From: a virus
Direction: 5' to 3' (one strand)
Virus record (IMG/VR): IMGVR_UViG_3300045135_001635
Length of the DNA stretch: 64,000 nt
Within the stretch, counting starts at the first letter, position 1; the number at the start of each line of letters is the position of its first letter. Positions 33,701-52,304 of the stretch are shown piece after piece. Made by a program: the position numbers and the translations under genes. The notes beneath the pieces are model-generated. The model worked only from the letters and a program-made list of their open reading frames with translations, made no database searches and was not told the DNA's origin.

Positions 33701-34408
33701 TTAGAAAGATGAGATATCTTCTAAAACCATTTCACGGAATTCTTCAGAGGTATCGCTCATATCAAATACATATGATACGGTACAACGCCAAGAATCTTCT
33801 GTTTCCGCTGCGTGATATAAAACTTTGTCTTGTTCAGTCCAAGAACCGAAATAAGCAGCTTTACAAGTCCACTTACCTTTAGGGTCTTCACACTTTACAA
33901 TCTCTTTTGTTTCAGGGTGAACATAAGAGAAGTGACCATCGCCACCTTCAGAATAACTGAAGATTAAGTTATATCCTGGAGCATTATGGTTGCTATGCCA
34001 CGAAATGAAGCCACCTGGAGGGTACACGGCACATAACGCATTATGCTTAACAGAAAGGAAATTCATCATTCTGGCGTTAAGGTCACTTAACTTATGTGTC
34101 AAATCACGCTTAAAGATTGGGTCTGCGTCTCTCTCAAAGAAAGTATGCGACTTATCAGCAAGCTTGAAGTTATAGCCAACAATCATATCAGGAAAGCCTT
34201 CGTGTCCAGCACCTTGGTCTTTAACATCCTGTAGATATTCCATACCCATCCAATGCGGGCGTTGGCGTTTATGTTCTTTTGCCGTTAAATGGCAATTCTT
34301 TTCGAAACCTTCAAGAGTATGTAATTTAGAATACTCATTTAAGATTTCAAGCAACTCAGGGTTATTAACCTCTACGTGCTTTAAGTATTGGTCGTTAATC
34401 TGTGTCAT
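33701..34408 (-). CDS. Putative 2OG-Fe(II) oxygenase-fold protein (HxN...H...RxT)
   Basis: VYPPGGFISWHSNHNAPGYNLIF...LYHAA...WRCT; paralogue of 4478-5110. Confidence 0.55.
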   Translation of the reverse strand: MTQINDQYLKHVEVNNPELLEILNEYSKLHTLEGFEKNCHLTAKEHKRQRPHWMGMEYLQDVKDQGAGHEGFPDMIVGYNFKLADKSHTFFERDADPIFKRDLTHKLSDLNARMMNFLSVKHNALCAVYPPGGFISWHSNHNAPGYNLIFSYSEGGDGHFSYVHPETKEIVKCEDPKGKWTCKAAYFGSWTEQDKVLYHAAETEDSWRCTVSYVFDMSDTSEEFREMVLEDISSF

Positions 34409-35139
34409 ACGATTGGTTTATCCTTGTCTAGACCAGCCGAGAAGTGACGTAAGATAACTTCATCTTCAGGCTGAGTTCTTGCCCAGTTAAAAGCATTGTA
34501 ATAATTCCATCTTAAATCATCATCAAAGATTCCGATTTTAAGATCCTTATATTTTTCTTCTTTCTCAGTAAGCCACCATAGTGAAAATTGATCCCAACAT
34601 TTAAGGGAATCCGCATATCCTTCTGGCCACCAAGTATCATTCATTTGCTTATACGTTAGTTCCCACCAGTCTTGCATAAATTCGCGCACGATTGGTTTAG
34701 ACATATCATACAAACACACACCACCACAAAGAGTAAATTGAGCTTTACCTTCTGGCGTATCAAAATCACGTTCAGCATAAATGTAGGAGCGATCGTCAGT
34801 GAGTTCAGAGTAGACCATATCATAGTCTTTCATCTCATCCCAAACTTTAACGATATCTTCATGCTCACATTCCATATCAGCATCAATGTACATTGTTATA
34901 TCATATGGCGATTGAGCCATACCCCATAACTTAGCGCGATAATGGTCTTCACAAAAGATAACCGTATCGGCTACGTCATGACCACGTTCATCAATAAATC
35001 TTTCTTCGGTTACTAAACAAATGTTACAATCTTCGTAATAATCGCGAAGCGATTCCGCTAAGTTAAGCGCATACAAATAAAAGTTACGTTTGTGTGAACC
35101 AACGATTACAAAACCTTTGGTCTTTTCCATATTACTCAT
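34405..35139 (-). CDS. GT-A fold glycosyltransferase (DxD)
   Basis: A.SLR, RAKL....SPYDITMYIDAD, GGV, WDQFSL, RWNY, ILRHF (GT8-like pattern). Confidence 0.75.
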   Translation of the reverse strand: MSNMEKTKGFVIVGSHKRNFYLYALNLAESLRDYYEDCNICLVTEERFIDERGHDVADTVIFCEDHYRAKLWGMAQSPYDITMYIDADMECEHEDIVKVWDEMKDYDMVYSELTDDRSYIYAERDFDTPEGKAQFTLCGGVCLYDMSKPIVREFMQDWWELTYKQMNDTWWPEGYADSLKCWDQFSLWWLTEKEEKYKDLKIGIFDDDLRWNYYNAFNWARTQPEDEVILRHFSAGLDKDKPIV

Positions 35140-35578
35140 CTCCAATCTGTTCTTGTAGAATCATAATTGAATATAAGTCAACTTCAATACGGCTTTTCGC
35201 ACGTCTCAGTTTAGACTTGAGTTTACGGTTTTTAGAATTCTTAATCTCTTCAACTTCAAAAGCTTCTAACTTATAGTTGAAAAGTTTCTCTAATTTACGA
35301 GCCTTTTCATGCTCGACTTCACGTTGCTTATGCTCTTCAGCTTCAGCTTTTTTACGTTCTTCACGATCAGTTGTTTCTTTATCTATTTGGGCTTCGCCAA
35401 CAGAGTCAACAACTTCGTTAAATAATTCGTTTTCGTTACCTTCTTTGTCGTGACGATTTAATTTCATCACTTGACGAGTAACACGACCAACGTCGTCTTC
35501 CATCTCTAAAATACAATTCAATTGGCTTCGGTCTTCATTTTCCCAAAACGCGTTATCTAACCATTTTCTATAGCTCAT
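35132..35578 (-). CDS. Hypothetical protein (charged coiled coil; possible fibre chaperone)
   Basis: 148-aa ORF with a GGAG SD; first gene after the giant repeat protein. Confidence 0.55.
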   Translation of the reverse strand: MSYRKWLDNAFWENEDRSQLNCILEMEDDVGRVTRQVMKLNRHDKEGNENELFNEVVDSVGEAQIDKETTDREERKKAEAEEHKQREVEHEKARKLEKLFNYKLEAFEVEEIKNSKNRKLKSKLRRAKSRIEVDLYSIMILQEQIGDE

Positions 35579-35621: not shown

Positions 35622-35685
35622 TAATAAAATAAAAGGGGATATTCCTTTATCCCCTTATTATACAACATTCCTTAATCTATATCAA
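35622..35685 (-). promoter_or_regulatory. sigma70-type promoter (35657-35685) abutting a terminator hairpin (35633-35656)
   Basis: TTGATA-17 nt-TATAAT, then AAGGGGATA-AAGGAA-TATCCCCTT-TTATTTT. Confidence 0.7.
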
Positions 35686-38600
35686 GAAATTCGTACATAT
35701 AATGTGTAAGTTTCTACAATTGAGAATGTAGGTTGTATTGTTGTTCCAACGTAGTTACCTACGAAAGCACGCGAATAGTTACCAACATAATCTCTCGCAT
35801 AGTTACCTACGAACTCACCAACATAATTACCGACATAGTTACCAGCATATGAAGATACGCGAGTTCTTGAGTAGTTATCTGTGTAAGCACTTGTACGTAA
35901 ACGTGAGTAAGCTGAAACACGAACTCGACTAAACGTATCAGTTGAGTTACGAGTATATTCACCAACGAAACCACGTGTGTAGTTACCGATGAAATCGCCT
36001 ACGAAGTCACGCGCATAGTTACCGACATACTCGCCAGCAAATCCACGAGTGTAGTTACCAGTAAAGTCACCAGCGTAGTTACGAGCATAGTTACCGATGA
36101 AATCACGAGCAAAGTTACCAGTGAAAGTACGGTTATATGTGCCAGTATATTCGCCAGCAAAACCACGTGAGTAAGTACCTGTATATTGACCAGAGAATCC
36201 ACGTGAGTAAGTACCAGTGTACTGACCAGAGAATCCGCGAGTGTATGTACCAGCATACGAACTTGGACGAGTTCTTGAATAATACTCAAAACGTGTGCGT
36301 AAGAAGTTACGTGAGTAATTTCCAACGAAGTCACGAGAGTAAGTACCAGTGTACTGACCAGAGAATCCGCGAGTGTATGTACCAGCATAAGTGCTAAAGC
36401 GTGAACGGTTGTAAGTACTAAAACGAGCACGAACAAAGTTACGCGAGTAATTACCAACATAATCACGTGAGTACGCACCAGTATATTCGCCTACGAAGCC
36501 ACGTGTATATGTTCCAGCATAAGTGCTGAAGCGAGCGCGGTTGTAAGAGCTTACACGGTTACGAGAGAAGTTACGTGAGTAATTTCCGGTATATGAGTTA
36601 GCATATGTGCCTGTATATTCGCCTACGAAGCCACGTGTATACGTTCCTGCGTAAGTACTTAAACGAGTACGAGCATAAGCAGATACTCTTGAACGAGTAT
36701 ACGCACGAGCATAGTTACCTGTATAAGTTGTCGCATATGTACCAGTATATTCACCAACGAAACCGCGAGCGTAAGTACCAGCATATGAACTTGCGCGTGA
36801 ACGAGCGTAAGCAGATACTCTTGAACGAGTATACGCACGGGCATAGTTACCTGTAAACGTACGATTATATGTTCCAGTATATTCGCCTACGAATCCACGG
36901 CTGTATGTACCAGCATATGAACTTGGACGTGAACGAGAATAAGCAGAAACACGAGTGCGAGTATAAGCACGAGCATAGTTACCAGCGAAAGCACGTGAGT
37001 AAGTACCAGTATATTGACCAGAGAATCCACGGCTATAAGCACCAGTGTATTGTCCAGAGAATCCACGGCTGTATGTACCAGTGTACTGACCAGAGAATCC
37101 ACGAGTGTAGTTACCAATATAGTTACCAGCAAAGTTACCAACGTAATTACCAATGAAGTTACCAGCATAGTTACGTGCGTAATTACCTGTATACGTTCTT
37201 GCATAGTTACCTACGAAGTCACCAGTAAACGTTGTTACACGGTCACGAGCATATGTGCTGTTACGAGTACGAGCGTATGCAGAAACACGTGTACGAGCGT
37301 AAGCACTGTAACGAGTACGAGCTGAAGTACGAGCGTATTCACCAACGAAGTTACCTGCGTATTCGCCAGCATATCCGCGAGCATAGTTACCTACGTAAGA
37401 CGCATTTCTTGTACGAGCATAAGCACTATAACGAGTTCTAGTCGAAGTACGAGTACTTAAACGAGTAAAGTCGCCGACATAGTTTGTTACACGAGTACGC
37501 GAGTAAGCTGAGTAACGAGTACGAGTAGAAGTACGAGTACTTAAACGAGTAAAGTCGCCAACATAGTTTGTTATACGAGTACGAGCGTAAGCGCTGTAAC
37601 GAGTACGAGTAGAAGTACGTGTTGATAAACGAGTATACTCACCAACAAAGTTACCTGTAAACGTAGTGACGCGATCACGGATGAAGTCGCCAACATAGTT
37701 TGTTATACGAGTACGCGAGTAAGCTGAGTAACGAGTACGAGCTGAAGTACGAGCTGATAAACGAGTATATTCGCCAACAAAGTTACCCGTAAACGTAGTG
37801 ACGCGATCACGGATGAAGTCGCCGACATAGTTTGTAATACGAGTACGCGAGTAAGCTGAGTAACGAGTACGAGCTGAAGTACGAGTACTTGTACGCGCAT
37901 AGTTACCAACAAAGTTGCCAGTGAAGTTTGTTACACGGTTACGAGTAAAGTCGCCGACATAGTTTGTAATACGAGTACGCGAGTAAGCTGAGTAACGAGT
38001 ACGTGTAGAAGTTCTTGTAGAAGTTCTTGCGTAGTTACCAACGAAGTCACCTGCGTAAGAACCAGTACGAGTATAATAACCAGTATTAGTTGAAGTACGT
38101 GTAGAAGTACGCGCATATTCACCTACGAAGTCACCTGCGTAGTACAATGGACGAGCATAGTTACCTGTGTAATATAATGTACGAGCGTAATTACCAACAA
38201 AGTTACCAGCATATACTAATGTACGAGCATAGTTACCTGTGTAATATAATGTACGAGCGTAATTACCAACAAAGTTACCAGCATATACTAATGGACGAGC
38301 ATAGTTACCAGTATAGTAAGCTGTACGAGCGTAATTACCAACAAAGTCGCCAGTATAGACTAATGTACGAGCATAGTTACCAGTGTAATACAATGTACGA
38401 GCATAGTTACCAGCGTAAGAAGCAGCGCGAGTACGAGTATACGTTGGATAGTAAGCACGATCACGAGCATACGTTGGGTAGTAAGCGCGTTCACGAGTAT
38501 ACGTTGGGTAGTAAGCACGATCACGAGCAAAACCTCTTTCTACAGCACGAGATCTTGTAAAGTCTGGATAGTAAGCACGATCACGAGCATACGTTGGAGC

Positions 38601-41600
38601 TGCGTGACGAGCACGAGTATATTCTAAGCCATAAACTCTATATCGAGCATATGTTGCTGTTCTACTGTAATATGCTGTACCAACAAAGTTACCAGTAAAG
38701 TAAGCTGTTGACGGCCAACCAGGATCTCCGCCCCAAGCTTGATAAGTATATGATCTTGTACTTGTACGAGTAGAAGTCCCTGTACCAGCATATGCTAATG
38801 TACGAGCATAGTTACCAGTATATGTCCCAGTACGAGTGTAATTACCTGTGTAATAAACGTTACGAGAATAGTTACCAGTGTAGTAAGCTGTACCGATATA
38901 GTTACCCGTAAAATATCTTGTACCGACAAAGTTACCAACATAATATCTTGTACCGGCATAATCGCCAGTGTAATAAGCTGTACGAGCATAGTTACCTGTG
39001 TAATATAATGTACGAGCATAGTCACCAGTATACGAAGCAGCACGGTCACGGGTATACGTTGGATAGTAAGCACGGTCACGAGCATAAGTCGGTGACGTTG
39101 TGTAGTCTGTGATACGAGTACGGGCATATGTCGGATAGTAAACACGACCACGAGTGTACGTCGGTGACGTTGTGTAGTTTGTTACACGGTCACGGGTATA
39201 CGTTGGATAGTAAGCACGGTCACGAGCATAAGTCGGTGACGTTGTGTAGTTTGTTACACGGTCACGGGTATACGTTGGATAGTAAGCACGGTCACGAGCA
39301 TAAGTCGGTGACGTTGTAGAAGTTCTTGTAGAAGTTCTTGCGTAGTTACCAACAAAGTCTCCAGCATAGTACAATGTACGAGTATATGCTAATGTACGTG
39401 TTGAAGTACGCGTAGAAGTACGAGCGTATTCACCAACAAAGTCTCCAGCATAATTACCTGCGAATCCACGAGCATAGTTACCAACAAAGTCGCCAGTAAA
39501 TGTCGTTGCGTAGTTACCTACGAAGTCACCAGCATAATCTGTGATACGAGTTCTTGCGTATTCACCAACAAAGTTACCAGCATAATTACCTGCGAATCCA
39601 CGAGAATAGTTACCAACAAAGTCGCCAGTAAATGTCGTTGCGTAGTTACCAACAAAGTTTCCTGCGTAATCAGTGATGCGAGTACGAGCATAATTACCAG
39701 TATATTCACCAGCAAAGTTACCAGCATATCCACGAGAATAGTTACCAACAAAGTCGCCAGTAAATGTCGTTGCGTAGTTACCAACAAAGTTTCCTGCGTA
39801 ATCTGTGATACGAGTACGAGCGTAATTACCAGTATATTCACCAGCAAAGTTTCCTGCGTATCCACGAGCGTAGTTACCAACGAAGTCGCCTACGAAATCG
39901 CGAGCGTAATTACCAGTATATTCACCAGCAAAGTTTCCTGCGTATCCACGAGCGTAGTTACCAACGAAGTCGCCTACGAAATCGCGAGCATAGTTACCTG
40001 TGTAATCACCAGCAAAGTTTCCTGCGTATCCACGAGCATAGTTACCTACGTAAGAAGCACCACGTGTACGAGCATAAGCTGAGTAACGAGTACGAGCTGA
40101 CGTACGTGTTGAGGTACGAGCATAATTACCAACGAAGTTACCAGCAAAACCACGAGCATAGTTGCCTACGAAGTTGCGTGAGTAATTTCCAACGAAGCCA
40201 CGAGCATAGTTACCAATAAAGTTACCAGCATAATCTGTGATACGAGTTCTAGCAAAAGTAGAAACGCGCGCACGAGAGAAAGCACCAGCAAAGTTAGTAA
40301 CACGATCACGAGTATAGTCTGTTACACGAGTACGACCATAATCAGCAGCGTATACAGAAACACGGTTACGTGAATATGTACCAGAATATGTGCTGATACG
40401 GTTACGTGAATATGTACCAGAGTAAGAAGAAACACGTGTTCTTGAGTAAGTACCAGCATAAGCTGAAACTCTTGAACGAGTAAAGTTACGTGAGTAATTT
40501 CCTAAGAACGAACGGCTGTAATTTCCAATGAAGTTACGAGCATAATTTCCGCTATACGTTGATATACGAGTACGAGCATATGTACCAGCGTAAGATGAAA
40601 CACGACCACGAGTAAAGTTACGTGAGTAATTACCTGTAAATCCGCGTGAATAGTTTCCTACGAATTGACGAGCATATGTTCCAACATAAGTTGATACGCG
40701 TGTACGAGCATATGTGCCTGTAAATGTAGAAACACGACCACGAGTAAAGTTACGGCTGTAATTACCAGTAAATCCGCGAGCATAGTTACCTACGAATCCT
40801 CGAGAGTATGTACCTGCGTAAGCAGAAACTCGTGTGCGAGCATACGTTCCAGAAAACGAGCTTGGGCGTGTACGAGTAAATTCACCAGCATAGTTCCCTA
40901 AGAAACCTCTTGTGTAGTTACCTACGAATTGACGAGCGTATTCACCAACATAAGTTGATACACGTGTACGTGAGTAAGTGCCAGAGAAAGCGCTTGTACG
41001 AGTACGTGTAAATTCGCCAGTATAGTTACCTACGAATTGACGAGCATAGTTCCCAGCAAAGGCACGAGCGTATTCGCCAGTATACGTTGAAACACGGTTA
41101 CGCGAGTAAGTACCAGAGAAAGCACTTGTACGAGTACGAGTAAATTCGCCAGCAAAATTACCAGTAAATGAACGAGCATAGTTACCGATGAAGTCACGTG
41201 AGTAATTACCAGTATACGTTGATACACGTGTACGTGAGTAAGTTCCAGTATACGTTGAAATACGGTTACGTGAGTAAGTACCAGTGTAAGTAGAAACACG
41301 GTTACGTGCGTATGTACCAGCATAAGCTGAAACACGACCACGAGCGTAAGTAGAAGGACGAGTGCGAGTAAAGAACCCAGCAAAGTCTGTAATACGGTTA
41401 CGAGTATAAACTGATACACGGTTACGTGCGTATGTACCAGCGAATACACCAGTAAACGCTTCTAAACGGTTACGTGTATAAGAAGAAATACGAGTACGAG
41501 CATAGTTACCGACGAAATCGCCAACGTATTCTCCCGCAAAACCTCTTGAATAGTTACCAGCAAAATCACGAGTGTAATTACCAACGTAATCACCAATGAA

Positions 41601-42485
41601 ATCCTGAGTAGTTGTACGCGTTGAAGTACGCGCGAACGCCGAACTACGTGTGCGAGCATAAGAAGAAACACGAGCACGAACATATGAACTGTTACGTGTA
41701 CGAGTGTAATCTATTTGCGCAGTAGTGCGTTGTGTATTGATTGCTGTACCTACAGCTTTCCAAGTTCCGGCATCAGTCGGTGCACCTTGCGCACTTGACC
41801 TTAATTGATATGAACCGATATTACCTGAAGTAGCACGTAGAGTTTTGATACGTTGACCCAATACTTCTTGGATCTCGTTATCTGTCATTTCTTGGAAACC
41901 GTCAAAGCCAGAACCGTCATAGCGGATCTTAACTGGACGAGTTGGGTTTACAACAGTCATTGCTGTACGAACCCAAATGTGGTAGTTTGTTACGCTTCCG
42001 TCACCACGTGTATCAGTGAATACATTCTCAATAAAGATTGTATAGTCTGAACCAGGAGTTGAAGATGCTAACTTGTATGTACCGATATAGTCATTTTCGA
42101 CCATATTTCCAAGAACACGATTAGCGAGGTTTGTTAAATCTTGGTCTACCATTTCGTAGAAACCAGGATTGTCACCTGCTTCGTAGTAACCCACAGGAAT
42201 GTTTACGCCACTTTCTACAGAAGGACCAGCAACTTGTTTTAGTGTGGTTGTTGTAGTTCCAGAAGTAATCTGTGATGCTGGGTGTGTACCAGTAGATTCG
42301 TTGAAAAATGTATCAACGTAAGTACCGACAGGAACACCAGCTGATAAAGTCAATGCGCCTACATCAGTAGGACTTAACATTGCTTGACCAACAGCATAAG
42401 CCAGATAGTTTTCTTCTAGTGGAGTGAATTCCTTCAGGTCACCATTCGAATTTAGTATTTTTAAAGGGATACTAGATGCTGACAC
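35682..42485 (-). CDS. Giant R/Y/G/T-rich repeat protein (2267 aa); predicted ultra-long beta-hairpin filament
   Basis: GTG start with late promoter; ~255-aa globular N-domain; ~1990-aa two-residue-periodic repeat with mirror complementarity around QAWGGDPGWPS. Confidence 0.85.
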   Translation of the reverse strand: MSASSIPLKILNSNGDLKEFTPLEENYLAYAVGQAMLSPTDVGALTLSAGVPVGTYVDTFFNESTGTHPASQITSGTTTTTLKQVAGPSVESGVNIPVGYYEAGDNPGFYEMVDQDLTNLANRVLGNMVENDYIGTYKLASSTPGSDYTIFIENVFTDTRGDGSVTNYHIWVRTAMTVVNPTRPVKIRYDGSGFDGFQEMTDNEIQEVLGQRIKTLRATSGNIGSYQLRSSAQGAPTDAGTWKAVGTAINTQRTTAQIDYTRTRNSSYVRARVSSYARTRSSAFARTSTRTTTQDFIGDYVGNYTRDFAGNYSRGFAGEYVGDFVGNYARTRISSYTRNRLEAFTGVFAGTYARNRVSVYTRNRITDFAGFFTRTRPSTYARGRVSAYAGTYARNRVSTYTGTYSRNRISTYTGTYSRTRVSTYTGNYSRDFIGNYARSFTGNFAGEFTRTRTSAFSGTYSRNRVSTYTGEYARAFAGNYARQFVGNYTGEFTRTRTSAFSGTYSRTRVSTYVGEYARQFVGNYTRGFLGNYAGEFTRTRPSSFSGTYARTRVSAYAGTYSRGFVGNYARGFTGNYSRNFTRGRVSTFTGTYARTRVSTYVGTYARQFVGNYSRGFTGNYSRNFTRGRVSSYAGTYARTRISTYSGNYARNFIGNYSRSFLGNYSRNFTRSRVSAYAGTYSRTRVSSYSGTYSRNRISTYSGTYSRNRVSVYAADYGRTRVTDYTRDRVTNFAGAFSRARVSTFARTRITDYAGNFIGNYARGFVGNYSRNFVGNYARGFAGNFVGNYARTSTRTSARTRYSAYARTRGASYVGNYARGYAGNFAGDYTGNYARDFVGDFVGNYARGYAGNFAGEYTGNYARDFVGDFVGNYARGYAGNFAGEYTGNYARTRITDYAGNFVGNYATTFTGDFVGNYSRGYAGNFAGEYTGNYARTRITDYAGNFVGNYATTFTGDFVGNYSRGFAGNYAGNFVGEYARTRITDYAGDFVGNYATTFTGDFVGNYARGFAGNYAGDFVGEYARTSTRTSTRTLAYTRTLYYAGDFVGNYARTSTRTSTTSPTYARDRAYYPTYTRDRVTNYTTSPTYARDRAYYPTYTRDRVTNYTTSPTYTRGRVYYPTYARTRITDYTTSPTYARDRAYYPTYTRDRAASYTGDYARTLYYTGNYARTAYYTGDYAGTRYYVGNFVGTRYFTGNYIGTAYYTGNYSRNVYYTGNYTRTGTYTGNYARTLAYAGTGTSTRTSTRSYTYQAWGGDPGWPSTAYFTGNFVGTAYYSRTATYARYRVYGLEYTRARHAAPTYARDRAYYPDFTRSRAVERGFARDRAYYPTYTRERAYYPTYARDRAYYPTYTRTRAASYAGNYARTLYYTGNYARTLVYTGDFVGNYARTAYYTGNYARPLVYAGNFVGNYARTLYYTGNYARTLVYAGNFVGNYARTLYYTGNYARPLYYAGDFVGEYARTSTRTSTNTGYYTRTGSYAGDFVGNYARTSTRTSTRTRYSAYSRTRITNYVGDFTRNRVTNFTGNFVGNYARTSTRTSARTRYSAYSRTRITNYVGDFIRDRVTTFTGNFVGEYTRLSARTSARTRYSAYSRTRITNYVGDFIRDRVTTFTGNFVGEYTRLSTRTSTRTRYSAYARTRITNYVGDFTRLSTRTSTRTRYSAYSRTRVTNYVGDFTRLSTRTSTRTRYSAYARTRNASYVGNYARGYAGEYAGNFVGEYARTSARTRYSAYARTRVSAYARTRNSTYARDRVTTFTGDFVGNYARTYTGNYARNYAGNFIGNYVGNFAGNYIGNYTRGFSGQYTGTYSRGFSGQYTGAYSRGFSGQYTGTYSRAFAGNYARAYTRTRVSAYSRSRPSSYAGTYSRGFVGEYTGTYNRTFTGNYARAYTRSRVSAYARSRASSYAGTYARGFVGEYTGTYATTYTGNYARAYTRSRVSAYARTRLSTYAGTYTRGFVGEYTGTYANSYTGNYSRNFSRNRVSSYNRARFSTYAGTYTRGFVGEYTGAYSRDYVGNYSRNFVRARFSTYNRSRFSTYAGTYTRGFSGQYTGTYSRDFVGNYSRNFLRTRFEYYSRTRPSSYAGTYTRGFSGQYTGTYSRGFSGQYTGTYSRGFAGEYTGTYNRTFTGNFARDFIGNYARNYAGDFTGNYTRGFAGEYVGNYARDFVGDFIGNYTRGFVGEYTRNSTDTFSRVRVSAYSRLRTSAYTDNYSRTRVSSYAGNYVGNYVGEFVGNYARDYVGNYSRAFVGNYVGTTIQPTFSIVETYTLYVRIS
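35750..41712 (-). repeat. Nested coding tandem repeats (units of 8, 10, 12, 24, 28 and 44 aa) with mirror-image organisation about ~38730
   Basis: For example, 72-bp units x4 at ~39050-39320 and x4 at ~38140-38410; 132-bp units x3 on each arm. Confidence 0.9.
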
Positions 42486-42712: not shown

Positions 42713-43183
42713 TTATGGTTTGACTGGCCATTCTAGTTCATCAAGAGATGATGGATTGTCTAAAGTAGCAGGGAAGTCACGTAACGATTGACGGTATACA
42801 CGATACTCAGCAACTTGTTCATCAGTTAATGGAGCATCAACAGTTTGAGTCCAATCAGTCGCAGCAATCATATGATTACGAATTGTTTTGATATCTGACA
42901 TAAATGCATCAGCATCCCATTCCCAATCAGTTCCATTGTATATAGCGTGTCTGTTAGGTGGTGTTCCTAAGTGAATCAATGAACCACTGTCATACACCCA
43001 TTCTACAGTGTTAAAATTATCTTCCATAAAACCAGAAGGAATGTTATCTTCAGATATGTGTATAACTCTTTCGCCAGTAGGTTTTAACCCTTCCGGAGGT
43101 AATGTAGCCATAGGAAACTCAACACTTATAAGTTGTTTCGTTAACTCATCAATAACTGCTACATATTTTATTACTTTTGACAT
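42713..43183 (-). CDS. Tail fibre assembly chaperone (Tfa-like)
   Basis: C-terminal RN.MIAATDWTQ..DAPL....YRQSLRDFP......WPVKP. Confidence 0.8.
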   Translation of the reverse strand: MSKVIKYVAVIDELTKQLISVEFPMATLPPEGLKPTGERVIHISEDNIPSGFMEDNFNTVEWVYDSGSLIHLGTPPNRHAIYNGTDWEWDADAFMSDIKTIRNHMIAATDWTQTVDAPLTDEQVAEYRVYRQSLRDFPATLDNPSSLDELEWPVKP

Positions 43184-43201: not shown

Positions 43202-43951
43202 TTATTCTTGTGCGAGTAAAACTGCGCCCCAATTCGTATAATAATTTATTCTTGTTTCGCTAGAATTTGGATCATTATAATAAGTAGTCCAAACGTTCTG
43301 AGGTGCTGAAAAATTTTGATACGTATAATCTATATATTGTGAATAATAATCACCATTTGAGAAAAATGTGGATACTATACCTGCCATATTATAACTATAC
43401 GTAAAATATTCTATTTTAGACCAATCAAACTGAATCCAATCATTTTTATTAGTAGTTATTCTAGATATATCACCGCTACCATAACCACTCATAGAGTTAT
43501 GTGGTTTCAATGATGTAACTTGTAATTTAGAATTTACTTTTATAGTTCTACTATCAAAAGAAACTTCATTACCTGAAGTAAGAACTTTTAATCCATAATC
43601 TCCTACTGGTGTAACTTTACTCGCTAAATCTAATACATAATAATCTAAACTAATATTACTAAAATCAGCTTCCAATGGATATTTTTTATTACCAGAAGAT
43701 TTAAACGTTACAGAAGATAAAGTGCTGTCGTACTCTATAACTATATAATCTTTTTGATAGTTGCTTGTATTTCTATGTTTCGGTTTTATAAAAATTAATC
43801 TAGTTCTATTAGGATCAGTTCCAAGTCCAGTGATACTACTACCAGTACCTTTTTTTGTCACAACATAATTCACTAAACCTATCGTAGTGTCTATTTGTAC
43901 AATTTCATTTCCTGCTGCATCGAAAGATTTTACTTGTAATCCATATGACAT
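43202..43951 (-). CDS. Tail-tip associated protein
   Basis: MSYGLQV.. and an internal DYGLKV...G...FDS repeat, typical of genes that follow central tail fibres. Confidence 0.5.
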   Translation of the reverse strand: MSYGLQVKSFDAAGNEIVQIDTTIGLVNYVVTKKGTGSSITGLGTDPNRTRLIFIKPKHRNTSNYQKDYIVIEYDSTLSSVTFKSSGNKKYPLEADFSNISLDYYVLDLASKVTPVGDYGLKVLTSGNEVSFDSRTIKVNSKLQVTSLKPHNSMSGYGSGDISRITTNKNDWIQFDWSKIEYFTYSYNMAGIVSTFFSNGDYYSQYIDYTYQNFSAPQNVWTTYYNDPNSSETRINYYTNWGAVLLAQE

Positions 43952-44736
43952 TATGAAATCCTCACTGCTGTTACTTTTATTGTGACCGAAGTACTACTAC
44001 TATTAGTTATTGTAAGCGTATCACCAGAAGTTGAAAACGATATAAAATCAGACCTAGCTGTAGTTGAATATATAACTTTACTAGGATCACTTACATCTTT
44101 TATAGTAAGTGACACCGAACCATTCCCAGCAATATTTTGACTCGATAAATGCGCTAAGTTAAATAACTTAGTTTGTGGGTTAATTATTTCAGTTACACCA
44201 TCTGGACCATATACAACTAAACCATATTCAGCGTCAGAGCCTGAAGCAACATAAGTTGGACCAGAACCACTACCACCTGAAATCGTTCTTGTATATGTAC
44301 TTGTTCTGGTATAGTTTCTCGTATAGTCAGCAATATAGTTACCGATATAATCGCTAGAATATGTTCCAGTATAGTTACCTAAGAAATCTCTGGTATAATT
44401 ACCAATGAAATTACCAAGATAACTTCTGGTATATGTTCCAGTATAGTTACCGAGATATTCTCTTGAATAATTACCTGCGAAAAATCTTGAGTAATTACCG
44501 ATGAAATTTCCAGTAAAATCTCGGGTATAGTTACCGACATATCTTTCTTCACGAGGATCCGTGCGGTATCCAGCGTAAGATGATATTCTAGTAGAAGTAG
44601 CACCTGAATAATATGCCGTAAAAGATCTAGAACTTGTGTGCGTATCTCTTGTAAATGTTGCAGAGCTACCTACACCAACACGAGTAAGCGTACGAGTGTA
44701 TGTACTTTGTCTTGTATAACTTACTATTCTTGCCAT
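43951..44736 (-). CDS. Structural protein: GNY/xTR beta-repeat N-half plus YGL-type C-domain
   Basis: YVGNYTRDFTGNFIGNYSR... uses the same vocabulary as the 2267-aa protein; C-terminal EYGLVVYGPDG. Confidence 0.6.
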   Translation of the reverse strand: MARIVSYTRQSTYTRTLTRVGVGSSATFTRDTHTSSRSFTAYYSGATSTRISSYAGYRTDPREERYVGNYTRDFTGNFIGNYSRFFAGNYSREYLGNYTGTYTRSYLGNFIGNYTRDFLGNYTGTYSSDYIGNYIADYTRNYTRTSTYTRTISGGSGSGPTYVASGSDAEYGLVVYGPDGVTEIINPQTKLFNLAHLSSQNIAGNGSVSLTIKDVSDPSKVIYSTTARSDFISFSTSGDTLTITNSSSTSVTIKVTAVRIS

Positions 44737-44746
44737 TATCTATCCC

Positions 44747-45208
44747 TTATTCAATAGCAGTTCCACCACCAGTGAAGAATGAAGTTCTTCCTTCAATGGT
44801 GCGAGCATAGGTTGATTCTCTTGTAAAACTTGTGCCGTAATATGCGGTAGAAGTAACGGTAAAGTACTCCGTTCTTACTTTGCTATAATAAGCGGTAAAC
44901 GATACTAATTTGTAAGTTGATTCTGTGAAGAACGCAAATGTCTCGCGAGTGTATGCCGAAGTACGGTCTACTAATTTATCACGAGTGTATGTACTTTCAC
45001 GGGCGCGAGTAAAATCTCTTGAGTAGTTACCGACGTAAGTATTTTCGCCATCTACAGTACTCGTACTCGTTCTATCAGTAGTATACTCGCCAGCATAATT
45101 TTTAGAGTAAGTACCGTCATAACTACCTGTGCGAGTTTTTACAAAATCGCGAGTAGATATAGCGGCGAAATCCAACACACGTGTAAATGATAAAGTATAA
45201 TCAGCCAT
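44747..45208 (-). CDS. Small GNY/xTR beta-repeat protein
   Basis: YAGEYTTDRTSTSTVDGENTYVGNYSRDFTRARESTYTR. Confidence 0.55.
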   Translation of the reverse strand: MADYTLSFTRVLDFAAISTRDFVKTRTGSYDGTYSKNYAGEYTTDRTSTSTVDGENTYVGNYSRDFTRARESTYTRDKLVDRTSAYTRETFAFFTESTYKLVSFTAYYSKVRTEYFTVTSTAYYGTSFTRESTYARTIEGRTSFFTGGGTAIE

Positions 45209-46982: not shown

Positions 46983-49900
46983 TTACACCGCCAACGCTAT
47001 AGTTCTGAAATCGGTAATAATAGGAACTTTACTTGAATTATTTGATTTCATAACAAGTTTAGTTTGGAATATACTAAATTGATCGACCGCTTCTATACTA
47101 TATGAATATTCTCGTATTACTTCACGACTTTCGTCGCTCGGAACTTGAGCGTCTATATCAACCTTAATCCATTCAGCTACATCTAATGATGAATCATCCT
47201 GAGCAGTTTTAACATAAACTTCAAACTGAGCAGCGCTCGGGCGATGAGCAGAGAACAATATTTTAAGTCCTTCAGCAGCTTCATCTAAAATTACAGGAGT
47301 TGTAATATGTTGAGCAGCGTCAGACATATCTATAACGTTTTCTATCGTCATTACAGAAGTACGCTGTAAGTCAATTAGAGGAGATACTTTAGTATCAGTT
47401 GTTGATAATGTTATAACAAATTCCATATCTTCTGGATCAGCCACGATAGTCGGGCGATCATTTAGATTTGAATCGTTAAGGAATACCTGCTTAGAAGCAA
47501 CCGAAGAATAAGAGTTATTATACAATGGGTTGTTTCGATTACCGCCGTAAGAAGCACCAGAAGTTTGGCGAACTTTAGCTGTAACGCTAGTACCATTTGG
47601 AATGATATTTGCGATATTAGGAATAATCTCATCAATCATAATTTGTTCATTTACGACAACCTGATCTCCACCGCCTAATACAGATGATGTAGCGATTGTA
47701 CCAGCGTTAATTCTATATCCGTCCCAAGAGACACTCGCGATAAGATGATTACCGTTAATGCTTGATGCGTCTACTCCACCAATAGTACCTTGTACGCCTG
47801 ATATTTCAACTTCATCGTTAGCATTAAATCCGTGACCTTGGTGAGCAATATGAACTAATGCGCTATCGCGTTCAACGGAAATAGGATCTGCTCCAAGAGT
47901 AATCTTAGGAACTTCAACGTTAGATAGAACAACGTTAGCCGAAGATTCAAATGACGCGCAATATAATTCAAACATCAAGTCTTTAGTTTGATCGGCTGTC
48001 CAAGTAGAACCATTCTGAGATAAGAATAGAGATCCAAGGGTTGGTTGTTTATTAACGCGACCTTCACGTCTATTAGGACCGAGAATGAATTCATAAGTCT
48101 CAGCTACATATGCGTTATACTTAACAGATTCAGCCAATAGTACTACCGCATATTCCTCGCTCGGCGATAAGTAGACTGGTTCATCAAAGTGTATATCAGT
48201 ACCGCCTTGAGATCTAACATCAGCAATATCAGTTTGATCTGTTAATGGCGTGATATTAATATCAGAAGGTGATACAAATTTAGAAGAACCAGGAACCAAA
48301 CGTGTTGTCGGGATACCATTTTCTACTGGGCGAATTTGTACTTGTAAAGGTATAGTATCATCTTTACTTTCCATAAAGATTCTTACTTTAGATAAGTAAA
48401 TTCCGTTTGGATTTTCTACCTGATCAACATAAAAAGTTTGAGCTAGTGGATCGTAACGTTCCGTAATACTTTCTACGATACGTGTTGAACGAATAGTTCT
48501 TTGAACAGTATCAATACGTCCTACAGATTCGTACATAGCACGTGAAGAAGCAATAGCGTTATCATCATCATTAACTACAATATCAAGTAGTTTAAATTCT
48601 TGTTGTCCTGTACGGAATGATAAGTTTGTTGTATTCGGTAAGAAGAACGAACCGATTAACATACCGTTTTCATCAGTTACCAAATCAGTATTTCCGTTCG
48701 GGTGACTCGTAGCATTAGAAAACTCACTTCCGTATTCTTTAGGATTATCCGAGAAATGCTTGAATCTATTTTCTTGACGAACCCAATCTTGTACTGGTTT
48801 GTTACCGAAGAAAGCAAACATATTAGTATTAGGACGTAATCCTTCAACGCGGAAGAATATTTCGCGAGAACGCATAAATGGAACTACTTCAACATTTAAA
48901 ACTTGTTCGCCTAAGAACTCTTGAATAGATCTTTCGACAACACGAGTCCGAATACGTTTTCCTTTAGTGATAGATCTGTTATCAGTACGTACTCTACGAA
49001 TATTGTTTTGCATAATATCAGGGAGTTTACGAACTTCTACCCATTCATCAGAAGAAGGAGATAACGTCATATGACCAGTTTGAGTAATAACCGCAAATGG
49101 GTTAACATTCATCTTCCCTGTCGCTAATAACTGAGAAGCCATAACTTCGTCAGTATAAGGAATAATAGCAACGTCGCCTTGCTTACGAGCTGTAGAGTTA
49201 GCTCTCATTGATAAGCGAATAGAGTTCTCTCTAAACGAAGGCATTAGCTCACCATTAACAGGCTCAACCGAAGCGCGATAATCAGGATTACTAAGATCGC
49301 AGAAGTTTAAGCTGTTAAAGTTATCCGCAATAAACCCAGATTTAGTTCGGTTATTTCCATTCTCATCCAATACCATAAGAGAAGCAGTATCAGTTTCAAG
49401 TAAACTAAGTGTCGTCAATTCATAAAGTTCTTCAACACGTTCTTCCAACTTAGCGATATCTTTCATAGTGAAACGCTTATGCGGAATCTTAGTTAACGTA
49501 AGATCTGTTTTGTCTAAGGTGTATGCGTTTAAATCAAACTGGAATAAAGGTAATGAACCAGTCGGAATTTGAGGAGGGCGTGGATCTAATGACGACTCAC
49601 CCTTAATTAGTTGTAAGCGACCAGTACCAATTCTACCCTTAGCGTCTAATGTATTAGCAACAAGAGTGTCGATACGAGGTAGGTAATATGTAGCGTCTAC
49701 GCTAATAATGCTCTTGTTTTTAGGGAGTGAATTAATACTTCCTGTATCTATCCCAGAAGGTAAAATTACTGGACGGAAATCAAGGACATCCGTTAATGAG
49801 ATTTCGGCACCCGACGAACTCTTATATGTAGGGATTAATCCGTAGTCTTGAGGATATGATTCAACACTGAAGTAATCTCCGTCTCTATGATAGAAGTGAG

Positions 49901-52304
49901 AGAATTGTACCGTGTATGTAGAGCCTACTTTAGCCGTAAGACCAGATTTAAGTCTTATTTTAATTGGTCCGTAGAAGTTATCTCTTTGTCCACCATCAAA
50001 CTCAAAAGAAGCTGTAACATTAGTACCACTATCGTCTACAACAGAAAGTAATTCAATACCGTCCGCGTAATTAAGTTCAATTAAAGAAGCGTCCGATGTA
50101 CTGTTTGCTAATGCTTGACGAGATATTTCATAATAGGTGAAACTTCCGTTTCCGCTAATATCTCCGCCTTGAGTATATGTTCCTGTATAAGAACTCGTGC
50201 GAGTCCTAATATATGAAGATGAGCGAGTATATTCGCTCGTAAAGTTTCTAGTTGACGGGTTTTCAGAAATAAATTGTCCAGTAACCGTGCGCGTAAAATC
50301 TAACCAAACAGGTTCTCTAGGATTGCCCCCTTCTCTTGCGGATACAACAGTTCTTTCCCCTGTATAAGAAGCAGCATAGCTACTTGATCTGGTGTTCGAA
50401 AAGGTTAAAGTTCTTGAGTAGTTTCCAACGAAGTCTACATATGTCGTATTTGTAAACGTCTTAGCGAACGTTGAAGGAACTGTTGGAGTTTGAACACTTC
50501 CGCGAGTGTATTGATACCCTTCAGCGTTTAACGTGGTAATATTACTTGCGCTTGTCGCGATCATCTCGCCGTTCCAGATAATACTCACCGCACCAGTATT
50601 ATCATCAACACGCCACATCGTTTCACCTTGAGTGAAGATTGGTCCTTCTATAGGAGCTGCGCCAGAGCCTAACGTTACATTCTCTGTTACCGTAGCGATA
50701 CCTTTCTCTCTTACTACAGGAGAAGGAACAGCAAAGTAATATGTTATAATATATGCTGTTGATGGAGATAGTCCTACAATCTTATTAAGAGAAACGTTCC
50801 AACCAGTAGCAACGCCAACACCAACTTCAAATATAACAGGGTTGTATGAAGCATCCATAGTTTCAGGAATAAATACTTCTCCCGAAGCGTCCGAAGAAAC
50901 TTCAATTGTACGTTGAGCTGAATAATTAGTATCAGTTATCGCTTGAGGACGTGGATTAGATAAATGGAATAATAATGAATTATCAATACCGCCTAATAGA
51001 CCAGAAGGTTTAACTGTAACAGAACCATTAGCTCCTGTTATTGTAGTAACTTCTCTGAAACTAGAACCGATATCCATCTGAACATTAAATAAGTATAAAC
51101 GATATTCACCGCCAACGTTTTCAATACCACGTACATTAGCTGTACCGATTCCGCTCAAACTTACTTGCCCGAACGTAGTTAGTTCTGAAATCCCTGTACT
51201 TAATGTTTCATCAATAACAACATAGTTACCGTATTGAGCAATTACGCTGTCGTTGTTTAGGCTGTCTGTTTCTCGAGCCTTTTCTAAATCTATATTTGTC
51301 GTACCGAAGTCTAAGCGATATCCGTCAACATAAGCAGTTCCAGGAGTTACTTCTAAATCTAAATTAAGGTCGTCTTTTTCATTAAGTACAGTTTTAAATT
51401 CTTTGGCTACATAGTCACCAGATTCTTCTTTTGTACGAGTAGCAAGTAGATCATTAATGATGTTATATGCGTCGTTAGTTTCAACTTCGCGAGTAATAAC
51501 ACCGTCAACTATACGCGCAACGAATACGAAGTTTTCTTCTTCTTGGACTTCATTTCTTGTTGTAGGAGTAAGTTCGATTTTAAATCTATGAGCACCAGGA
51601 GAAGAAGTATTTGGAAGATCTCCTTGGTTATCAAATAGCCCTTCGTCTTCACTCTCAGTGATAATAGTTTCTACTATTTTAAATCCGAAGTCTACAGTAG
51701 GTGTTGAGCTATACATATCAATATAAACTGACTGTTGTTCAACTTGTACAAAGTGGCCATGTACGAAGAATACACCTTCGCTGATTGAGATAATCGTTCC
51801 TGTACCAACAGCTGGAATAGTATCGTCGCTTGCTACAGTTAAAGGAAAGGTTGTAGAGCCGACAGGAGTTAATGTTTGATTTGACGTAACGCGTGGCGCT
51901 TCTTCTGAATTAGATAAAGCAGTTGTATCTGTATATTTTACGATAAGTGTTTGCGGTGAAGTATCTGTAGAAGGGTGATACTCTTCAATTAAGAATTTAA
52001 CACCTTGACTATTTTGGTATTCTTTCCCTACAATATTATCTGGTACATTACTGTTTGTTTGTAGTCTAATATATTCTTTAGAATTATCGACCATAGAACC
52101 GCCAGCGTGAACCATAGCACCTTCTTTGAAAATGTTACGTCCAAATTGAGCCAGTTCTTCATGAAAGATAGACTGTAACTCATTTAGTTCTCGAGCTTGA
52201 AGAGCTTTACCAGCATTAAATAATACTCGATGATATCCGTTTGTTTTATCGAAGGAATCTCGATATGTTTCTTTAAATGTTTTACTTGTAAAATTAGTCA
52301 TCAA
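46983..52304 (-). CDS. Large baseplate/structural protein (VrlC / DUF4815-like)
   Basis: YHRVLF..GKALQARELNELQS, PGAHRFKI, RTKEESGDY, YDPLAQTF, GSLFLSQNGSTW. Confidence 0.85.
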   Translation of the reverse strand: MMTNFTSKTFKETYRDSFDKTNGYHRVLFNAGKALQARELNELQSIFHEELAQFGRNIFKEGAMVHAGGSMVDNSKEYIRLQTNSNVPDNIVGKEYQNSQGVKFLIEEYHPSTDTSPQTLIVKYTDTTALSNSEEAPRVTSNQTLTPVGSTTFPLTVASDDTIPAVGTGTIISISEGVFFVHGHFVQVEQQSVYIDMYSSTPTVDFGFKIVETIITESEDEGLFDNQGDLPNTSSPGAHRFKIELTPTTRNEVQEEENFVFVARIVDGVITREVETNDAYNIINDLLATRTKEESGDYVAKEFKTVLNEKDDLNLDLEVTPGTAYVDGYRLDFGTTNIDLEKARETDSLNNDSVIAQYGNYVVIDETLSTGISELTTFGQVSLSGIGTANVRGIENVGGEYRLYLFNVQMDIGSSFREVTTITGANGSVTVKPSGLLGGIDNSLLFHLSNPRPQAITDTNYSAQRTIEVSSDASGEVFIPETMDASYNPVIFEVGVGVATGWNVSLNKIVGLSPSTAYIITYYFAVPSPVVREKGIATVTENVTLGSGAAPIEGPIFTQGETMWRVDDNTGAVSIIWNGEMIATSASNITTLNAEGYQYTRGSVQTPTVPSTFAKTFTNTTYVDFVGNYSRTLTFSNTRSSSYAASYTGERTVVSAREGGNPREPVWLDFTRTVTGQFISENPSTRNFTSEYTRSSSYIRTRTSSYTGTYTQGGDISGNGSFTYYEISRQALANSTSDASLIELNYADGIELLSVVDDSGTNVTASFEFDGGQRDNFYGPIKIRLKSGLTAKVGSTYTVQFSHFYHRDGDYFSVESYPQDYGLIPTYKSSSGAEISLTDVLDFRPVILPSGIDTGSINSLPKNKSIISVDATYYLPRIDTLVANTLDAKGRIGTGRLQLIKGESSLDPRPPQIPTGSLPLFQFDLNAYTLDKTDLTLTKIPHKRFTMKDIAKLEERVEELYELTTLSLLETDTASLMVLDENGNNRTKSGFIADNFNSLNFCDLSNPDYRASVEPVNGELMPSFRENSIRLSMRANSTARKQGDVAIIPYTDEVMASQLLATGKMNVNPFAVITQTGHMTLSPSSDEWVEVRKLPDIMQNNIRRVRTDNRSITKGKRIRTRVVERSIQEFLGEQVLNVEVVPFMRSREIFFRVEGLRPNTNMFAFFGNKPVQDWVRQENRFKHFSDNPKEYGSEFSNATSHPNGNTDLVTDENGMLIGSFFLPNTTNLSFRTGQQEFKLLDIVVNDDDNAIASSRAMYESVGRIDTVQRTIRSTRIVESITERYDPLAQTFYVDQVENPNGIYLSKVRIFMESKDDTIPLQVQIRPVENGIPTTRLVPGSSKFVSPSDINITPLTDQTDIADVRSQGGTDIHFDEPVYLSPSEEYAVVLLAESVKYNAYVAETYEFILGPNRREGRVNKQPTLGSLFLSQNGSTWTADQTKDLMFELYCASFESSANVVLSNVEVPKITLGADPISVERDSALVHIAHQGHGFNANDEVEISGVQGTIGGVDASSINGNHLIASVSWDGYRINAGTIATSSVLGGGDQVVVNEQIMIDEIIPNIANIIPNGTSVTAKVRQTSGASYGGNRNNPLYNNSYSSVASKQVFLNDSNLNDRPTIVADPEDMEFVITLSTTDTKVSPLIDLQRTSVMTIENVIDMSDAAQHITTPVILDEAAEGLKILFSAHRPSAAQFEVYVKTAQDDSSLDVAEWIKVDIDAQVPSDESREVIREYSYSIEAVDQFSIFQTKLVMKSNNSSKVPIITDFRTIALAV

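Follow-up and report, generated by a model that had tools for sequence, protein, structure and literature searches.

The window analysed here is a 64,000-nucleotide stretch of viral DNA (IMG/VR record IMGVR_UViG_3300045135_001635) from an uncultured marine T4-like myovirus. One gene on its minus strand encodes a protein of 2267 amino acids (aa) that is very probably a single nested-domain protein, in which the two ends of the chain form one base and the 2,003 residues between them are the outgrowth of a single β-hairpin turn. An earlier reading made from the DNA letters alone (the sequence-only reading) had proposed that the N- and C-termini meet in one anchor domain and that the filament is an elongated single turn, and our analysis supports this interpretation. 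The interval considered there (41690-42485) codes for aa 1-265, and all the strings quoted from it and from the C-terminus are present in the product of the gene. The features discussed below are listed with their coordinates in Table 1.

Sequence comparison indicates that aa 1-253 are made up of three homologous units, numbered as in the table, with unit 3 consisting of aa 181-253 together with the C-terminal strand. The sequence-only reading was right about the repetition but counted two units, which correspond to units 2 and 3 in our numbering, as aa 1-95 form a third and more diverged one. The motifs GFYEM, IGTYKL, VFTDTR and VTNYHIWVR of unit 2 start at aa 108, 134, 155 and 165, and GFQEM, IGSYQL and AINTQR of unit 3 at aa 196, 223 and 248, while VETYTLYVR starts at aa 2257. 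A Smith-Waterman comparison of aa 96-180 with aa 181-253 gave a score of 60 against 23.4 ± 4.2 for shuffled sequences (z 8.7), and none of 2000 shuffles reached 60; the same single-sequence tests of unit 1 against units 2 and 3 were not significant (z 1.2 and 1.4). In profile-profile comparison (hhalign), with the units cut from an alignment of 59 complete short members of the family (alignment A1), unit 2 aligned to unit 3 without the C-terminal strand at E 3.6e-14 (score 70.3, 61 columns) and unit 1 aligned to unit 2 at E 6.5e-9 (probability 95.8%, 73 columns), with TTTLYQ over YNIYQR. Hidden Markov models (HMMs) of the units match the window protein at E 2.7e-29, 6.6e-29 and 1.3e-28 (the last for unit 3), and cross-unit matches inside the protein occur at E 1.1e-5 (unit-2 HMM on unit 3) and 0.004. 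The homology that had been claimed for the two quoted units is thus confirmed by shuffling, by profile comparison and by the cross-unit matches, and the units align significantly. Each unit has the order strand-strand-helix-strand-strand-strand, and unit 1 carries a long conserved GTHP loop at its hairpin turn.

The N-terminal part of unit 3 ends at AINTQR without a last strand, and our data support the view that the extreme C-terminus, ETYTLYVR, supplies the missing one. The last residues of the window protein are IVETYTLYVRIS. Whatever the length of the insert, [IV]ETYTLYVR stands at the C-terminal end of each of the 162 complete relatives; it is the best conserved motif of the whole protein, and exactly two residues follow it in 152 of them. 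With the C-terminal strand spliced onto unit 3, the hhalign score against unit 2 rose from 70.3 to 85.8 (E 5.8e-17, 76 columns), and the alignment reached the last column, with YNIYQR of unit 2 over YTLYVR. Control splices (the strand in reverse, five column shuffles and two neighbouring arm segments) scored 70.9-72.0; since they add at most 1.7, the gain of 15.5 obtained with the true strand is specific to its order and orientation. Between clades the C-terminal strand and the closing strand of unit 2 vary in concert: a distant clade (29-33% identity) has KLWVR and KLWQK where the main one has YTLYVR and YNIYQR.

AlphaFold2 models of two natural relatives are in line with this arrangement. 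P0063 (292 aa, with an insert of 32 aa) was modelled with alignment A1 at a mean predicted local distance difference test score (pLDDT) of 91.4 and a predicted template modelling score of 0.86, and the model shows three units of identical element order; the last hairpin of its unit 3 consists of strands 240-262 and 266-290, which span the entire insert. P0082 (711 aa) has a base 57% identical to that of the window protein and a globular domain midway along its insert. The base is predicted at pLDDT >90 and the final 20 residues at 90-98; two long strands, 251-283 and 674-709, are separated by 390 residues of sequence and have no other partner of such length. ETYTLYVR is accordingly placed by prediction in a long strand of pLDDT 90-98, for which strand 4 of unit 3 would be the only plausible partner. 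The base hairpin runs on into the arms for 23-36 residues in both models, and the predictions support the base plus ~35 residues per arm. A strand pairing taken from the midpoints of DSSP strands was about 3 residues off the register implied by unit homology and was set aside, and our reading makes no claim on pairing at the level of single residues. Together, the family-wide motif, the orientation-specific profile gain and the confident C-terminal strand in two models agree with the earlier proposal that the C-terminus completes the second quoted unit; in these natural relatives TYTLYVR is predicted to complete the N-domain fold.

The insert lies between R253 and V2257, at the turn of unit 3 where the sequence-only reading had put it, and comprises 2003 aa (aa 254-2256) and not the ~1990 given there. 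Its midpoint (1255.0) falls inside the tip motif, so that the two arms are equal to within one residue. Most of the aromatic residues stand in a single phase modulo 4, namely 176 of 203 in the outgoing and 168 of 210 in the returning arm. The dominant local repeat periods towards the tip are 12, 44, 12, 28, 44, 28, 24 and 20 aa, and those back from the tip are 20, 24, 28, 44, 28, 12, 44 and 12 aa. The best mirror centre of the period profiles is at 1253.5 (r 0.67), 1.5 aa from the midpoint, and the mutual information between residue classes at positions i and C-i peaks only once, at C = 2506, where it reaches 0.74 over a background of 0.43-0.58. A relative with a base 85% identical to that of the window protein (L002) has an insert of 1575 aa, which is 428 aa shorter, and its homologous GGDPG (1038-1042) is again centred on the midpoint, 1040.0; as the tip stands at the midpoint in this protein as well, the arms differ between the two relatives by about 215 residues each. 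A mirror scan over the middle 40% of the insert, with Phage C48C1 left out for the globular domains in its arm, placed the centre at most 10 aa from the midpoint for 31 of the 73 long representatives, where 6.3 are expected by chance, and in 15 of the 19 representatives with r >= 0.5.

We favour a structure in which aa 1-253 and the last 11 residues would form one compact base of three units, possibly a β-prism with approximate threefold symmetry. In units 1 and 2 a loop or a short turn would close the hairpin of strands 4 and 5. In unit 3 this hairpin would be drawn out: the chain would leave the base after AINTQR, run out for 997 residues, turn at WGGDPGWP, run back for 998 residues and re-enter as ETYTLYVR. 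Both chain ends would then be proximal, attached to the virion, and the tip of the hairpin distal, and the gene product would serve the marine T4-like myovirus as a virion fibre or adhesin; the globular tip domains of relatives are presumably host-binding. We infer that the insert, over its full 2,003 residues, is a continuous two-stranded ribbon whose arms pair antiparallel and in a register that the base, acting as a clamp, would fix. Fibre length would change by matched duplications or deletions at mirror positions of the two arms. A more detailed proposal, which we offer tentatively and regard as slightly more likely to fail than to hold, is that this single-polypeptide β-ribbon is ~330 nm long, that a complementarity code of tetrads operates between the arms in the manner of the strands of an RNA stem, with the base acting as the clamp that sets the register, that lengths from 32 to >3,000 residues arise by compensating mirror duplications, and that the same turn in other units is a general docking site for inserted domains.

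Several points weigh against the nested-domain reading. On single sequences the C-terminal 9-mer does not match the last strand of unit 2 significantly (z 0.9), so that evidence at the family level is needed and the match is specific at that level only. The register derived from the base (i+j = 2510) and that from mutual information (2506) are one tetrad apart, and the mirror scan fails in 42 of the 73 relatives. The AlphaFold2 models are of natural relatives and not of the window protein, and strand pairing was deduced from DSSP strings, pLDDT and aligned ranges rather than from measured contacts. Residues 285-676 of P0082 have pLDDT <50, and a continuous ribbon is therefore modelled for only ~35 residues per arm. 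The virion location, the oligomeric state, the baseplate attachment and the host-binding role are proposals taken from gene context. The near-identical short metagenomic forms P0026-P0037 and P0045 have unequal arms, of 24-48 aa and 39-63 aa, which vary in 12-aa steps; this may reflect either assembly collapse of 36-nucleotide tandem repeats or that strict pairing is not required.

Finally, a strand swap would account equally well for all the sequence evidence, namely the conserved C-terminal strand, the homology of this strand with the one that closes unit 2, and arms that are equal and mirrored. In this case the C-terminal strand would complete unit 3 of another subunit and the arms would pair between chains, in either a head-to-tail polymer or an antiparallel dimer that has a base at both ends. 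Monomer AlphaFold2 runs cannot reveal such a swap. We nevertheless consider it improbable, because a Gly-Gly-Asp-Pro-Gly turn motif stands at the exact midpoint in two relatives of unlike length, because the globular domain at the midpoint of P0082 is easier to reconcile with a distal tip than with the centre of a dimer, and because the arms of P0063 are too short for anything except an intrachain hairpin and are so modelled at high confidence.

It is also conceivable, with a very small probability in our estimate, that the ends meet in the base as proposed while the insert is no paired ribbon, its arms folding separately (as a solenoid, or partly disordered) or needing partner proteins, and its mirrored blocks stemming from some other constraint. 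Such unpaired arms would agree with the low pLDDT in the middle of P0082 and with the unequal arms of the short variants, and the tetrad vocabulary is shared by two neighbouring genes, with products of 261 and 153 aa, that could supply extra strands. Against this stand arms of 997 and 998 residues, a tetrad phase unbroken over ~1,000 residues in each, mirrored period blocks centred 1.5 aa from the midpoint, the single sharp peak of mutual information, the matched change of ~215 aa per arm between two close relatives, and the continuation of the base hairpin for 23-36 residues into the arms in both models. Equally slight is the chance that ETYTLYVR is an independent tag for a chaperone, for assembly or for docking to the baseplate, with a coincidental likeness to unit 2 and with the repeats as a plain C-terminal extension: chaperones often recognise fibre C-termini, as in the phage Tfa and gp38 systems, a tail-assembly-chaperone gene adjoins and the 9-mer match falls short of significance when single sequences are compared, but the profile gain of 15.5 is specific to true order and orientation, the C-terminal strand covaries between clades with the strand that ends unit 2, the motif lies in a long strand at pLDDT 90-98 in two independent models, the tip at the exact midpoint would be needless for a plain extension, and unit 3 would be left one strand short of units 1 and 2.

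Homologues with short inserts, as expected on the sequence-only reading, do exist. A phmmer search with aa 1-265 against 1.84 billion representatives found 362 proteins at E <= 1e-3, with a match that covers aa 1-265, is N-terminal in nearly all of them and belongs to proteins from ~290 to >2500 aa in length; relatives share the N-terminal start of the window protein, MSASSIPLK. A word-indexed search limited to proteins of 145-464 aa gave 79 proteins, many of them full-length genes (360-460 aa) found on contigs of 25-150 kb. Among the 162 complete members the insert ranges from 32 aa (P0063) to 3,078 aa (median 402). The window protein shows all four features of this uncharacterised family with a three-repeat base and a fold-back insert: three units of ~85 aa, the terminal [IV]ETYTLYVR followed by two residues, equal tetrad arms round a tip, and a place in a T4-like module together with three small genes.

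Among 50,697 phage records searched by tblastn with three family members, only Phage C48C1 carries the family, and DNA megablast of the window against phage records gave no match. The C48C1 homologue (WJE88074.1 in OQ984149; L001 12001-22044) has 3347 aa and is annotated only as hypothetical. Its base is 64% identical, and it shares the GTG start, a C-terminal ETYTLYVRVA and the same neighbour genes; it differs in having several globular domains (~120-250 aa) between the tetrad stretches of the returning arm. A ~75-aa segment of this protein (KTRHRSYLYY...NFSGQY) is present twice in tandem in identical copies. Pfam gave no match to its inserted domains, nor to those of P0002, P0082 and P0187, and the window protein, searched in full, as base alone and as C-terminal part, was assigned to no Pfam or PHROG family. 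A literature search found no relevant paper on C48C1 or OQ984149 and none on the protein family. In a subgroup of the family (P0187, P0181, P0189, P0199, P0215, P0218 and P0223) a domain of 120-170 aa is located in the hairpin loop of unit 1, and the match of the unit-1 HMM is split around it. This position is equivalent to that of the giant insert, and the turn therefore looks like a recurrent site of insertion.

Table 1. Features of the fold-back fibre protein gene and its neighbours (window coordinates unless a relative is named).
Feature	Coordinates	Strand	Basis or remark
Fold-back fibre protein gene, 2267 aa, GTG start	35682..42485	(-)	Single open frame; stop codon 35682-35684
Base-domain unit 1 of 3, aa 1-95, most diverged	42201..42485	(-)	Profile-profile comparison with unit 2; AlphaFold2 homologue model with same element order
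Base-domain unit 2 of 3, aa 96-180	41946..42200	(-)	Last hairpin VFTDTR-GDGS-VTNYHIWVR, short turn
Base-domain unit 3 of 3, N-terminal part, aa 181-253	41727..41945	(-)	Ends AINTQR, without last strand; alignment to unit 2 and HMM
Outgoing arm, aa 254-1250, 997 aa	38736..41726	(-)	Four-residue repeats aromatic-x-G/R/S-x
Tip WGGDPGWP, aa 1251-1258	38712..38735	(-)	Only clearly non-repetitive turn motif
Returning arm, aa 1259-2256, 998 aa	35718..38711	(-)	Repeat-period blocks in mirror order
C-terminal strand VETYTLYVRIS, aa 2257-2267	35685..35717	(-)	Probable last strand of unit 3; family motif, hhalign gain, homologue models
Upstream neighbour, 156 aa, tail assembly chaperone domain	42713..43183	(-)	Pfam PF16778, E 7.8e-15; PHROG 4912
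Three downstream genes, 148, 246 and 235 aa, accompanying the base-domain gene	33701..35578	(-)	Same sizes and order after homologues in L002, C48C1 and L003
Three small genes in relatives	L002 15627-17513; L003 11345-13242		

The fold of the base appears closest to the MABP β-prism. In exhaustive VIA-align comparisons the same four entries came out on top for both models, with Z of 7.0 and 7.0 for 8b6v, 6.7 and 6.1 for 2qp2, 6.0 and 5.6 for 3tow, and 4.5 and 4.6 for 6sb1 (P0063 and P0082, respectively), values to be read with the statement of the program that Z <8 is common for unrelated models. For P0063 the next entry was 6u23 (perforin-2, Z 4.1) and the first unrelated one had Z 3.2, while for P0082 the next entry after the top four had Z 2.8. 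The matching MABP entries, the only ones clearly above the rest, are from Mp2Ba1 (8b6v), Photorhabdus MACPF (2qp2), MVB12B (3tow) and the P2 domain of perforin-2/MPEG1 (6sb1 and 6u23). They align over 112-123 residues with a root-mean-square deviation of 3.5-3.9 Å for the three best (5.5-5.7 Å for 6sb1), and involve all three units and the C-terminal strand. The superpositions reach the very last residue of each model, so that the C-terminus is within the aligned core. The MABP β-prism is made of three repeats and has approximate threefold symmetry, and in MPEG1 one prism hairpin is “extraordinarily elongated” and binds membranes (PMC6753088). The likeness would fit a three-repeat prism with one elongated hairpin, though the hairpin here is about a hundred times longer than that of MPEG1, and the base units each have a helix in addition. 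With Z around 7 and 7-13% sequence identity we regard this as a resemblance and not as membership. Pfam gave no family above the E 0.2 significance for aa 1-265, hence no match to an MABP profile, Foldseek found nothing at E <= 0.001 in the PDB and BFVD, and the ESM Atlas returned only unnamed viral clusters.

All genes of the window are on the minus strand and of T4-like myovirus type. Baseplate wedge proteins resembling gp25, gp6 and gp8 are encoded here, along with a large terminase, a collagen-like fibre and several giant structural proteins. The base-domain gene sits within the T4-like baseplate and tail-fibre module, with gp8-like genes on one side and neck genes on the other; the gp6-, gp8- and gp25-like genes are upstream of it, and fibre genes and the PF16778 chaperone gene adjoin. 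In C48C1 the gene at the position equivalent to the latter is annotated “tail assembly chaperone”. The three small downstream genes gave no Pfam match at E <= 0.01, a result that lends no support to reading them as a glycosyltransferase plus an oxygenase. Small genes of this kind (~150, 245 and 237 aa) trail the base-domain gene in every relative examined, whether the insert has 180 or 3,000 aa. In L003 a short form of 442 aa is found in another T4-like module, after gp6, gp9/10-like and gp8-like genes, and is followed by the three small genes and then by the gp13 and gp14 neck genes.

The large terminase of the window shares 81% identity with its counterpart in Phage C48C1 (OQ984149) and only 45% with those of Synechococcus phages. 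C48C1 is filed under Kyanoviridae, with a terminase ~45% identical to cyanophage terminases; as it is without psbA, a cyanobacterial host is doubtful, and the host may not be a cyanobacterium.

Two small proteins encoded upstream of the base-domain gene, of 261 aa (43951-44736, minus strand) and 153 aa (44747-45208, minus strand), consist mostly of aromatic-x-G/R-x tetrads like the giant insert, and the former shares the terminal VRIS and carries a globular C-terminal part of ~100 aa. They are candidate mini-fibres or partner strands. No base units were found in other open reading frames (ORFs) of the window, including these two. The same module encodes an 830-aa collagen-like (Gly-X-Y) tail fibre protein (55027-57519, minus strand), with PHROG tail-fibre matches down to E 4.5e-190, and three further giant ORFs lie in the structural region, all on the minus strand (46983-52304, 1773 aa; 24656-30118, 1820 aa; 18719-24559, 1946 aa). 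The gene of L003 at the place corresponding to 46983-52304 carries DUF4815.

In function the nearest described design is the tip of T4 gp37. The account of Bartual et al. 2010 given in PMC9659904 describes a collar and a needle, in which the chains run out along a six-stranded antiparallel needle to the head and return, with both ends in the proximal collar. The window protein would share the out-and-back course and the proximal ends, as suggested by the C-terminal strand, the equal arms and the AlphaFold2 models, and the gp37 gene likewise belongs to a T4-type tail-fibre module beside a chaperone gene. The gp37 needle, however, is a six-stranded trimer of ~215 residues, whereas the out-and-back part of the window protein has 2,003 residues and is about ten times longer. 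Reportedly, the gp37 needle is stabilised by His-x-His iron sites; the window protein is unlike it in having no HxH motif and 3 His in 2267 aa. Its base is a three-repeat domain in one chain without a match to any Pfam or PHROG fibre family, and no sequence similarity to gp37-type tip families was found in Pfam or PHROG with the base, the C-terminus or the whole protein. The window protein may thus work like gp37, a likeness that does not amount to membership in the gp37 family. It appears to represent a fibre design without an experimentally described equivalent at this scale, akin to phage fibres and to nested-domain insertions.

If the proposed structure is correct, one topological plan, with a hairpin turn of a small repeat domain drawn out into the entire shaft, underlies fibres of very different length in a large protein family of marine phages, which has 362 clusters at 50% identity and is almost absent from cultured phages. 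Such a plan would account for the confinement of conservation to the first 253 and the last 11 residues. The host-binding end would be encoded in the middle of the gene and not at the C-terminus as in most tail fibres, which would change where receptor-binding regions should be sought in abundant uncultured phages. The protein illustrates a blind spot of AlphaFold2, by which the base and ~35 residues per arm are modelled and the shaft is not. The natural forms of 292-460 aa are of a size accessible to structure determination and to the engineering of protein fibres, and the protein would offer a model of co-evolving, register-locked arms that is directly testable. Should the ribbon reading hold, it would constitute a new principle for building protein fibres and for tuning their length.

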